A stretch of 16,064 nucleotides of DNA from a virus. The position numbers were made by a program. Positions 12,001-15,000 of this stretch are shown piece by piece (position 1 is the stretch's first letter; each line of letters opens with the position of its first letter). The DNA lies in the UHGV virus genome UHGV-1966638, one strand, 5' to 3'.

Positions 12001-15000
12001 GAATACATACACACGAAAACTTTGATTTAGGCTTAACCCGTTGATTCTTCCACAATCCTCAATTTGAGGAAGTCGGCGTGGTAACTCATTGAGATTAAAG
12101 CAAAGCGCAAAATTGCGCTGGCTGAATAATCATTATGATTACGCAGATGATTAAGGCCTAAGCCGTTGATTCTTTCGAAATCCCCCATTGGGGGAAACCG
12201 GAGCGGTTACGGCGGTAACTTGTTGATATTGTTCCAAAGCTCATTTTTGAGCTTTGGCCTGCTCAGTTTATTCAACTTCCGTCAGTGGTGGGCGTTGAGA
12301 AACACTGCTGCGTGGTATTACTCTAACCCATTGATGTTTATTGCTCATTTACTCGATTATTTGAGTTGTTCAAATTCACCAGTCGTAAAACCATGATTTG
12401 TACATCCCCGATATCGGGGTATGTAAACCATCCAGACCGGGCCAGCCAGCCAGCCCTGATTTTTACATCCCTCACTTCTGAGGGCTGATAACAAACCATC
12501 TTTAAGAGGGTCAGAACTACGAAATTTTCGTAGTTTAACTTTCATCCAGTGCATCTCCGAATTACGGGTATGTAACCACAGCTATTACGAGGCGATTGTT
12601 GATGCGTGATATTCAGCAGGTTCTGGAACGCAGGGGAGCGTGGGCGGCAAATAATCGCGAGAATGTGACCTGGTCATCCGTTGCCGCAGGAGTTAAGGGG
12701 ATTATTCCGGCAAAGATAACATCACGCCCACAGTGCTGTGACGATGATGCGATGGTGATATGCGGGTGCATAGCCCGCCTTTACCGGAACAATCGCGATC
12801 TGCATGAGTTGCTGGTTGATTACTACGTGCGGGGGATGACGTTTATGTCACTGGCGCAAAAACATGAATGCTCTGATGGGACTATCGGAAAGCGGCTGCA
12901 AAAAGCTGAAGGTGTTATTGAAGGAATGCTGATGATGCTGGATGTTCGGCTGGAGATGGATCGGTATGTTGAGCGCGATTCAGTGACGGCATAACGCGCA
13001 TAAAAAAACCGCACTCATGAGGAAACTGCGGCGGAGAAGTCAGACTTGCCAATCAATCATGAAAAACGTAATCGCCTGATAATTATGCCACGAAGCACGG
13101 AAAAACAGTACAGGCGGTGAGATATAGCCCTCAAATGGAGGGAAAATCCCCTAAAGCGAGGGATATCCATCAAAACGAGAGAACATCCCCTAAAATGGGG
13201 GATTTGCATCACGGAAAGGTGTCCATGACTGCTCTCCGCGCTATCGGGAGAGGCTTCTCGGCGGTTTTCGCTGAACGCATTCAACGTGATGTTGCCTCAA
13301 ATACCCCCTATTGTTGCCTCAAATCGACATGATGTCGCCTCAATTTTTTTGTGATTATTAATTAAATCAATACGTTAAGGCGTTTGAGGCAACTGAGGCG
13401 ACACATTTTTCCTATATATATAAAGCGTGTGAATGATCTGAATGGTGATAATCACCACGCAGACCATCCAGACAACCATAACGAACATCGTTACAGTTGG
13501 AGCTTTTACCCCGTTGGGGGGGAAAGGTGCACATCTGGATCATCATTATGGTGATCGAGGGTATGGCTAAAATGACCACACCCCACCAGCTTCATAGAGG
13601 ATAACCGGAAAAAATCCGGTAAATATTTGCCTGAGTAAGTCATCAAGCGCCTGCTAAATGTGTATAGAAATGTGTATAGGATTGATTTTAGAACATGTAG
13701 AAATGGCTTTATTACTGGTGTCATGGCTTTTTGTTCTGTTCCCTTCGCCGCTCCATGACCATTCTTAAAGTCTACTAACTTACTGAATCCTAAGGGATAC
13801 GGCTTAAAGCCTTCCAATAGTTTTACTCACTGTAACCAACACTGTGACTAACTTTGTTGAAGTAGTGAGCAGACCTAAGGTCTCAGTACATGCTCAATTC
13901 AAGAACCTACCTTTATCAGCGTAACGGTGTCTTTTACATCCGTCTTAGGATGAAGACCACGGGTCGCCTGACCGCTTCGCTTCCTTCTCACAACCGTTAT
14001 AAACTAGCGTCAGTATCACTACGGACTAAGGACAGACGCACCGCTATGGCTCACTCTCGGCACATCAAGTCAGCACTGAAGGCAATACACGCAGACAACC
14101 CTAGCGCGTCCTATGAGGAACTACGGGAGCACCTGAAGACCATTGTTGAGTGGGAACTTAGTGTCAGCCGTGATGACCTGAACGACCCTGAGTCCTACCA
14201 GCTTTACGTTGACCAGTACGATGACATTAAGTCCAACCTTCGGGAAGCTGTAGCGACTGAGCGTCTGACTGTAGACCAGCATCGCTATATCAATGACGTT
14301 ATCGGTGTGCTTAAGGCCTGTCAGGATAGACTCAAGGGTGATAGCTCTGGCCTGTTGTCTTACCTTGAGCCTGAGACCAGTAGTCTAAGACCGTCTGTCT
14401 CCTTATCTGTATCATCGGAGCCTGAAGTCCCTGAACCTAAAGCCCTGACCCTCGCGTCTCTCATTGAGCAGTACGAGCAGGAGAACGCCCAGAACTGGAA
14501 GCCAGCGACCCTGAGCGAGAACCGAGCGTCTCACTCTACGTTAATCGAGATATTCGACTATCTGGATATTCAGGATGTCGGCAAGGCGACCCGTTCAGAT
14601 ATGCTCAGGGTCCGTGAAGTCCTCCAGCAGATACCGAAGAACCGCAAGCAACGCTTTAAGTCTATGCCGCTGTCTGACCTGCTGAACCGGGAGTCTAAGA
14701 CTGACTGTCTGGATGTCGTTACCATCAACAATAAATACCTTATCAAGATGGCTGCTGTGTTTAAGTGGGCGGTACGCAACGACCTGATAGCTAAGAACCT
14801 GACAGAAGGTCTTGAGCTGAAAGTCCCGCAGCGTAAAGCCTCCGACGCTCGTGATGCGTTCAGTCCTGAGCAGGTAGGGCAACTACTGGTCGCAGCTAAA
14901 GCGTACTCGCAGAAGACCTCAGGGAAGCCATATCATTATTACGTCACCGCTCTGGCTGCAATCACTGGAGCGAGACTTAACGAGGTGGCCCAACTTCAGG

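Follow-up and report, generated by a model that had tools for sequence, protein, structure and literature searches.

The 16,064-nt viral sequence UHGV-1966638, to which we refer in its full length as the window, contains an island of about 14 kb that, judged by its gene set and origin layout, appears to be a phage satellite of the Gram-negative lineage of phage-inducible chromosomal islands (PICI-like). Its primary origin, ori1, lies directly 3′ of its replication gene, and a partial duplicate of it, ori2, is found near the right end of the island. Immediately upstream of ori2 stand short dyads, which a sequence-only reading had tentatively interpreted as a diverged set of the island's own iterons that might give the second origin a different specificity. 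Which initiator do these dyads fit, and why do they stand beside a spare origin? As described below, the array is almost certainly the iteron half of a lambda/Stx-type (Stx, Shiga toxin) lambdoid origin, that is, four predicted sites for the phage initiator O. Its place on the island suggests that the island may tap into, or sabotage, the DNA replication of a helper phage.

Predicted O-binding sites upstream of ori2

The array consists of four dyads, all on the + strand and spaced 20/19/20 bp (Table 1). The three dyads that had been quoted before are present where they had been placed (CCCTCAAATGGAGGG at 13128–13142, CCCCTAAAGCGAGGG at 13148–13162 and CCCCTAAAATGGGGG at 13187–13201), but a fourth, damaged one (TCCATCAAAACGAGAGA, 13166–13182) had been missed. 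Allowing up to two mismatches, the 17-mer consensus TCCCYYAAANNGRGGGA has four matches in the 16-kb window, every one of them in the array; 0.12 matches are expected, and none of 200 shuffles reached four.

When the region 12995–13270 was searched with blastn against 5426 complete E. coli genomes, hundreds of matches to 13128–13203 were obtained. Among the matches listed outside the island copies, all lay inside the prophage 'replication protein' gene between cII and P, which is lambdoid O. The ori iterons in the O genes of O157 prophages align with the array over 76–79 nt at 83–87% identity, with E-values down to 1e-17, and those of lambda, 434, 21, ES18 and SfI, whose records annotate gpO-binding iterons, align at 86–90% identity. 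In the phage collection, all 30 matches listed were in O genes (lambda, 434, 21, HK140, ES18, SfI and relatives), and several of the phage records label the matched region as gpO-binding ori iterons. Among the 19 matches in the plasmid collection, 13 were to annotated replication-protein genes and the others to unannotated sequence or a 'hypothetical protein'; several of these records are phage-sized. In an alignment to lambda and two O157 prophages, the four units match phage iterons one to one, the inter-iteron bases included, and iteron 1 (13127) aligns with iteron 1 of the O157/Stx-type O genes. In its 20/19/20 spacing, the array follows units one to four of the six-iteron O157/Stx origins (20/19/20/24/23), a type that has been described (PMC7466680), and not the four lambda iterons (20/24/23).

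The homology ends at the array on both sides, and no O-coding flank was found there. A tblastn search of the window with lambda and Stx O returned only the iteron-encoded linker peptide of 25–30 aa and no O domain; by this search no O is encoded in cis, and the array lies outside any O gene (P was not searched for). Furthermore, the AT-rich unwinding region of lambda is not present beside the last iteron. The stretch 13203–13340 has 37–60% A+T in 30-bp windows, and the first AT-rich stretch (87%, ~13343–13375) is part of the island-type origin. Among the parts of a lambda-type origin, an array of at least three dyad iterons of 17–19 bp at ~20-bp spacing is thus present, and the adjoining AT-rich region and the location within an O gene are absent. 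By this composition, the array would be the iteron half of a lambda-type origin and not an ori-lambda. An open reading frame (ORF) of 71 codons with a GTG start (13117–13332) crosses the iterons in the O frame and encodes PQMEGKSPKARDIHQNERTSPKMGD, which is 72% identical to the O linker; rather than being a gene, it almost certainly reflects the homology at the DNA level.

Given the homology to O-binding iterons, the predicted ligand of the array is a helper-phage protein and not the product of the island gene at 5140–7278. A lambda-type O protein is encoded by lambda, 434, 21 and many Stx/O157 prophages, which would be candidate helpers. We also sought a phage having both an island-like Q gene and a lambda-type array. 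No such phage was found: in the two Stx1 phages with an island-like Q that were compared, the O and iteron types differ from the lambda type.

The arms are intact in three of the four sites (13127, 13147 and 13186), including the G tracts contacted by O. The arm states of iteron 3 (CCATC, GAGAG) were seen in none of the 32 natural iterons compared. Relative to the near-invariant phage arrays (lambda, SfI, ES18 and others), the island array differs at ~8–10 of 79 positions. Two of the differences from the phage consensus strike both arms of iteron 3, whereas the arms of iterons 1, 2 and 4 are untouched; for these three iterons, none of ~8 differences falls within the 30 arm positions (post hoc p ~0.02). 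This count was made by hand from alignments to the phage consensus and treats iteron 4 as a fusion of the lambda iterons ITN2 and ITN3, which, from its two halves, it may be.

The proposal that the dyads are iterons of the island itself, to be bound by its replication protein Rep (5140–7278) or a variant of it, has to be weighed against these results. The dyads do hold the position of the four 21-bp-spaced iterons of ori1 upstream of the duplicated segment, and their period is similar. They do resemble the island iteron in its reverse-complement form as well, but weakly: the similarity comprises the 8-mer CCTCAAAA and up to 15 of 21 positions per unit, and this 8-mer, the longest run shared between the lambda-type unit and the island iteron, was equalled in 80 of 2000 shuffles (4%). 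The Rep core, GT[TC]GCCTCA or TGAGGC[AG]AC, has 19 matches in the window, all of them in ori1 and ori2 (within 7304–7629 and 13291–13402), and none in the array at 13127–13202, where all four units lack it. In contrast, the homology to phage O iterons is far stronger (E ~1e-17) and extends to the inter-iteron bases and the spacing. The idea of iterons with a different specificity is thus borne out, whereas it is very improbable that they are a diverged set of the island's own.

The dyads can also be read as RNA hairpins, namely as terminators or nut-like or qut-like elements in a transcript starting downstream of Q. Their 5-bp stems and 5-nt loops lie ~130 nt downstream of the antiterminator gene, and a consensus scan called one of them terminator-like on the minus strand. 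However, this lone call falls on iteron 2 itself, whose T tract is weak, and the homology to DNA-binding iterons fully explains the dyad symmetry; we find such a role barely credible. No promoter-like site was found upstream of the array on the + strand in the promoter/terminator scan, and the sequence downstream of the island Q showed no convincing similarity to a qut/PR′ site in comparison with the PR′ regions of phage 21 or Stx1 phages. In lambda, initiation depends on transcriptional activation. A known RNA family was considered as well and rejected, as an Rfam search of 11000–14000 gave nothing relevant.

The array had also been placed in one family with the dyads at 12057–12484. This did not hold: none of those matches TCCCYYAAANNGRGGGA at up to two mismatches, and they have arms of 6–10 bp, spacers of 0–4 nt and a place in other repeat units. 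Their identity as iterons of another lambdoid origin was rejected too, the HK022-like O-gene repeats of two Stx1 phages being unrelated to them. The noncoding region 11990–12600 upstream of Q consists of repeated modules, each with a conserved ~12-mer (CCGTTGAT(T/A)(C/T)T..) and, after it, a perfect dyad of short length whose sequence differs from copy to copy (TCCTCAatttGAGGA, TCCCCCAtTGGGGGA, CCAAAGCTCAttttTGAGCTTTGG and ACTCGAttatTTGAGT). The region also carries TACATCCCCGAtaTCGGGGTATGTA-type hairpins, and the modules recur in shuffled order in other islands. That the structure is kept while the sequence varies hints at RNA hairpins or a family of protein sites; the modules are not lambda iterons.

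The module, its slot and its spread

The array is part of a module in which a single slot holds the four lambda-type iterons, a spacer of 59 bp and, copied from ori1, a unit B of ~180 bp. The primary origin is built from two tandem PICI-type units, each with an AT-rich core between direct and inverted GTTGCCTCA iterons, and forms a large pseudo-palindrome overall. Four TGAGGCAAC units at 21-bp spacing (7386, 7407, 7428 and 7449; span 7386–7457) precede the segment that is duplicated at 13262–13441, and it is in the place of these four Rep iterons that the lambda-type iterons stand in the module. Only the second unit of ori1 was copied, and in its small indels the copy agrees with SCU-106 ori1 and not with the ori1 of its own island. 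It retains three direct (13291, 13313 and 13334) and two inverted (13385 and 13394) Rep iterons, as well as the AT-rich core mentioned above. For the spacer, searches of E. coli, phage and plasmid sequences found no homologue outside the module copies. Its first ~12 nt (TTTGCATCAC) may be a stub of the next lambda inter-iteron/ITN4 sequence, and GAGGCTTC at 13250–13257 may be a decayed Rep iteron.

The slot adjoins the Q gene downstream, between ...TTATGCCACGA and TGAATGGT..., and the right junction of the module with the backbone shows a TGAATG microhomology. In SCU-106 and 2013C-4974, which both have a matching Rep and ori1 type, the slot is 19 bp; in O157:H7 it is occupied by ~70 unrelated bp. 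The related islands without the module share the Q gene and the right-end backbone. Among the 5426 E. coli genomes, 11 carry this origin type. A second origin copy is found in three of these 11, and the array in those same three. With three metagenome contigs added, array and ori2 always co-occur. In JNEC-KY203, one of the three genomes, ori2 has one extra 9-bp Rep iteron, and the array is identical.

In one metagenomic island, the Q gene and the left flank are 66–92% identical to those of the window, yet the stretch from 13113 to ~13650 is 100% identical. This full identity next to a diverged flank indicates that the right-end block with the module was moved between island lineages by recombination. 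Diverged copies of the array were found neither in E. coli genomes, phages, plasmids and metagenomes nor in contigs encoding an identical Q, and an exact-pattern search of IMG/VR for the array gave no hits. Rep relatives in E. albertii, Citrobacter, Symbiopectobacterium, Pseudomonas and Sodalis showed no lambda-type iterons, and hence no recurrence of such a fusion. Directly to the right of the module slot lies a further dyad, TGGTGATAATCACCA (13443–13457), which reads TGGTCATAATGACCA in the islands of SCU-106 and 2013C-4974. This compensatory double change keeps the palindrome and suggests a conserved protein-binding site or hairpin near the right end.

Candidate roles of the array

How could such an array serve the island? 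Helper iterons that were captured and joined to a spare island origin would make either a chimeric origin switched on by the helper's O or a sponge that deprives the helper of this protein, and for this broader view the case for and against seems to us evenly balanced. An O-responsive hybrid origin in particular is possible, and we put it forward tentatively. In this scheme, a helper with a lambda-type O would infect or be induced, and O dimers would load on the three intact sites. The resulting O-some would wrap island DNA, replacing the four 21-bp-spaced Rep iterons that flank unit B in ori1. Acting alone, or with the island Rep at 13291–13342 and 13385–13402, it might help to open the AT-rich core at ~13343–13375 or recruit P-DnaB there. 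The island would gain an auxiliary origin that is triggered by the helper and, as a by-product, each island copy would withdraw unstable, limiting O from the helper.

The order of the parts, iterons and then AT-rich DNA, is the same as in ori-lambda, and the Rep array that the lambda-type iterons replace has a similar period of ~20 bp. The array is fused to the island's sole duplicated origin, and related islands whose Rep and ori1 are the same lack the two jointly. A single iteron can be bound by O, an O-some assembles even where the AT-rich region is missing, and for lambda to grow three iterons are enough (PMC7466680). That the array exists only in fusion with the origin duplicate, and in the lambda order, might be explained best by a hybrid origin, although we would not rely on this explanation.

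Several points weigh against an O-driven origin. The minimal lambda origin and unwinding substrate comprises a pair of iterons with the AT-rich stretch next to them (PMC7466680). On the island, the closest AT-rich DNA lies ~140 bp from the array, across 50–60% G+C, whereas the unwinding element of lambda abuts ITN4. Both arms of iteron 3 carry damage, ITN4 has been lost or has decayed, and the 8–10 differences in 79 positions from an almost invariant phage consensus suggest that constraint may have been relaxed. Moreover, the island has a complete replicon of its own and no evident need for O, and S1-KEN-03-A, the one island-bearing genome checked, is without a lambda-type array besides the island's own. 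The module is rare, being present in 3 of the 5426 E. coli genomes, and since all known copies of the array are identical, they provide no comparative evidence of selection.

Alternatively, the array could bind the O of the helper and start nothing. The hundreds of arrays of an island amplified from its own origins would then titrate the short-lived O or compete with ori-lambda, so that theta replication of the helper would be damped and the satellite favoured. The parts that are present, iterons without an AT-rich region or an O gene, suffice for such a sink. Plasmids with part of ori-lambda block rep-lambda phages, for which ITN3–4 are required and the AT-rich part is not (PMC3349717), and the binding of O to iterons is independent of the AT-rich region (PMC7466680). 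In addition, satellites commonly interfere with the reproduction of their helpers (PMC6092414, PMC7145576). However, in the published plasmid system oop transcription was also required, iterons alone being insufficient (PMC3349717). A sink could be placed at any location, which leaves the fusion to the duplicated origin unit unexplained, and one of the four sites is damaged. We consider a mere sink unlikely.

The same damage to iteron 3, the loss of ITN4 and the departures from the phage consensus would also be expected if the array were a non-functional scrap of an O gene of ~90 bp, which, left behind when co-replicating phage and island DNA recombined illegitimately, is slowly decaying beside the origin copy. 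The microhomology at the right junction of the module is typical of illegitimate joining, and the module has a single evolutionary origin, is rare, and shows no variation that could reveal selection. Other lambdoid fragments of ~70–80 bp are present in the right arm of the island, at 11816–11883 and 11995–12076. They match KilA-N and roi/antirepressor genes, and in the identical genome copy a KilA-N pseudogene fragment is annotated over the first of them. These scraps indicate that the right arm has recombined repeatedly with lambdoid phages; they look like debris, which again counts against a functional origin. On the other hand, a random piece of 80–90 bp from a phage of 40–60 kb would rarely coincide exactly with the initiator-binding array and include no flank. 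Its landing next to the sole duplicated origin, with the AT-rich DNA in the order of ori-lambda, is unlikely by chance. The arms of three sites are untouched, and the block has spread to a diverged island. We regard debris as a somewhat unlikely origin of the array. Even so, a scrap of this kind would still document recombination between replicating phage and satellite origins.

The island and related systems

The island is inserted at tRNA-Gly and spans from there to ~13750, with all its genes reading rightward (Table 1). A near-identical copy is located in E. coli S1-KEN-03-A between tRNA-Gly and the ETT2 region. The rightward genes int, alpA and pri-rep, followed by an origin with iterons flanking an AT-rich core, and the size of the island, which falls within about 10–15 kb, agree with the sequence features of PICIs. 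No virion or lysis genes are annotated in the identical island copy, and among ten ORFs scanned against Pfam there was no structural family and no match to the terS/rpp families. A search for lambda cosN in the window gave one chance-level match with two mismatches only.

Table 1. Coordinates of the array, the origins and the genes in the window
Feature	Position	Strand	Remarks
Integrase	1–1215	+	
AlpA	1858–2061	+	
Rha regulator	after AlpA	+	
Icd/Ash-like protein	2904–4418	+	
DUF4222	upstream of the DUF927 rep gene	+	
Replication gene (Rep)	5140–7278	+	DUF927 primase-type, 712 aa; presumably binds the GTTGCCTCA iterons; not similar to lambda O
ori1, primary origin	7290–7670	+	directly 3′ of the DUF927 rep gene
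SSB	after ori1	+	
Dcm methylase	8776–9915	+	
NmeDI_C-like endonuclease	9851–10927	+	
Q21-family antiterminator (Q)	12596–12994	+	80% protein identity to Q of Stx1-converting phages; directly upstream of the module slot
Iteron 1	13127–13143	+	GCCCTCAAATGGAGGGA; both 5-bp arms intact; outer T to G; spacer AAATG
Iteron 2	13147–13163	+	TCCCCTAAAGCGAGGGA; arms as in lambda ITN2/Stx 1′; one change in the spacer
Iteron 3	13166–13182	+	TCCATCAAAACGAGAGA; damaged in both arms (CCCTC to CCATC, GAGGG to GAGAG)
Iteron 4	13186–13202	+	TCCCCTAAAATGGGGGA; left half ITN2-like; right half and the ATT(T)GC after it lambda ITN3-like
Spacer	13203–13261		59 bp, 50–60% G+C
ori2, partial duplicate of unit B	13262–13441	+	~94% identical to 7475–7668
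Second integrase	13890–15485		531 aa; further ORFs follow

An exact 30-bp direct repeat (8576–8605 and 11584–11613) brackets the Dcm methylase and the NmeDI_C-like endonuclease, which are likely a restriction-modification system. As a related metagenomic island has different DNA there, the interval between the repeats looks like a slot for the exchange of cargo. The island ends with a partial tRNA-Gly repeat, and from ~13733 onwards the sequence matches the tRNA-Gly/integrase junction of other strains. The second integrase gene directly follows the end of the first island, so that this tRNA site holds two islands in tandem. Behind the first island, S1-KEN-03-A and JNEC-KY203 have a glycoside hydrolase gene instead.

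At two integration sites, tRNA-Gly and yicC-dinD, the final gene of PICI-like islands is the Q21-family antiterminator. Other copies of this family were found in the yicC-dinD island of O157:H7 (L005, 14013–14405), where IS2 lies just downstream of Q, and in L014 (8608–9000). An island-borne Q could act on the late or stx operons of the helper; once the island has circularised, such a Q could further read through attP and reach the rightward genes. The origin of the O157:H7 yicC-dinD island (L005, 8520–8760) contains repeated TGTTCACC/GGTGAACA units, an octamer that we take to be the same as the type I iterons of satellite P4, and its rep gene is annotated as primase-like and not as DUF927. 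Since origin and rep differ in this island, sister islands appear to swap Rep/ori modules and to keep the Q-bearing right end. Naming the O157:H7 island EcCIEDL933 was considered and dropped, as EcCIEDL933 is a capsid-forming PICI according to the literature.

Satellites are already known to steal packaging sites, capsids and regulators from their helpers. If the interpretation as captured helper iterons is correct, this island would be the first satellite that exploits or sabotages the replication initiation of its helper through pirated origin iterons, the replication counterpart of cos piracy; among the papers covered by a full-text search, none describes origin iterons of a helper in PICIs or other satellites. 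If O binds and this binding matters, replication initiation would be a new point of contact between lambdoid phages and satellites. The phages concerned include Shiga-toxin phages, in which O-dependent replication drives toxin gene dosage. The island would also offer a natural test bed for combining heterologous initiator arrays in one origin.

Compared with known origins, the array is like ITN1–4 of ori-lambda and the six-iteron Stx origins (933W, P27) in its dyad consensus TCCCYYAAANNGRGGGA and in the alternation of CCCTC and CCCCT types. Its 20/19/20 spacing matches iterons 1, 1′, 1″ and 2 of the six-iteron Stx origins, with 83–89% identity (PMC7466680). Unlike ori-lambda and the Stx origins, it lies outside an O gene, has no adjoining AT-rich region and no ITN4, contains one damaged unit and is followed by a satellite-type origin. 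The island as a whole is like the Gram-negative PICIs in having int, alpA and a primase-type rep (PMC6092414). The origins of these PICIs, positioned 3′ of pri-rep, consist of two iteron sets around an AT-rich region (Fillol-Salom et al. 2018, PMC6092414), and ori1 and 13262–13441 share this arrangement of two iteron sets flanking an AT-rich region. Iterons for a helper initiator and a second, distal origin unit distinguish the island from the PICI origins described so far (PMC6092414).

Extra lambda iterons without the AT-rich region, acting in trans, are also what the inhibition-phenotype plasmids carry (Hayes et al. 2012, PMC3349717). In that system, rep-lambda phages are silenced by ori-lambda iterons in multicopy when oop is transcribed as well; unlike the island, these plasmids are artificial, and they need oop transcription (PMC3349717). 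The presence of a short cis site from lambdoid helpers on a satellite is further shared with the cos-site piracy of E. coli PICIs such as EcCICFT073, which copy the cos site of the helper so that a helper protein acts on satellite DNA (PMC6092414, PMC9026076). There, the pirated element is a packaging site with a proven function, whereas here it is a predicted site for a replication initiator. A second cluster of initiator repeats several kb away from the main origin of a satellite or plasmid driven by a primase-helicase is found in P4 (ori/crr) and in plasmid P1 (incA). The crr and incA arrays bind the initiator of their own element, whereas the added repeats of the island match the initiator of another element.

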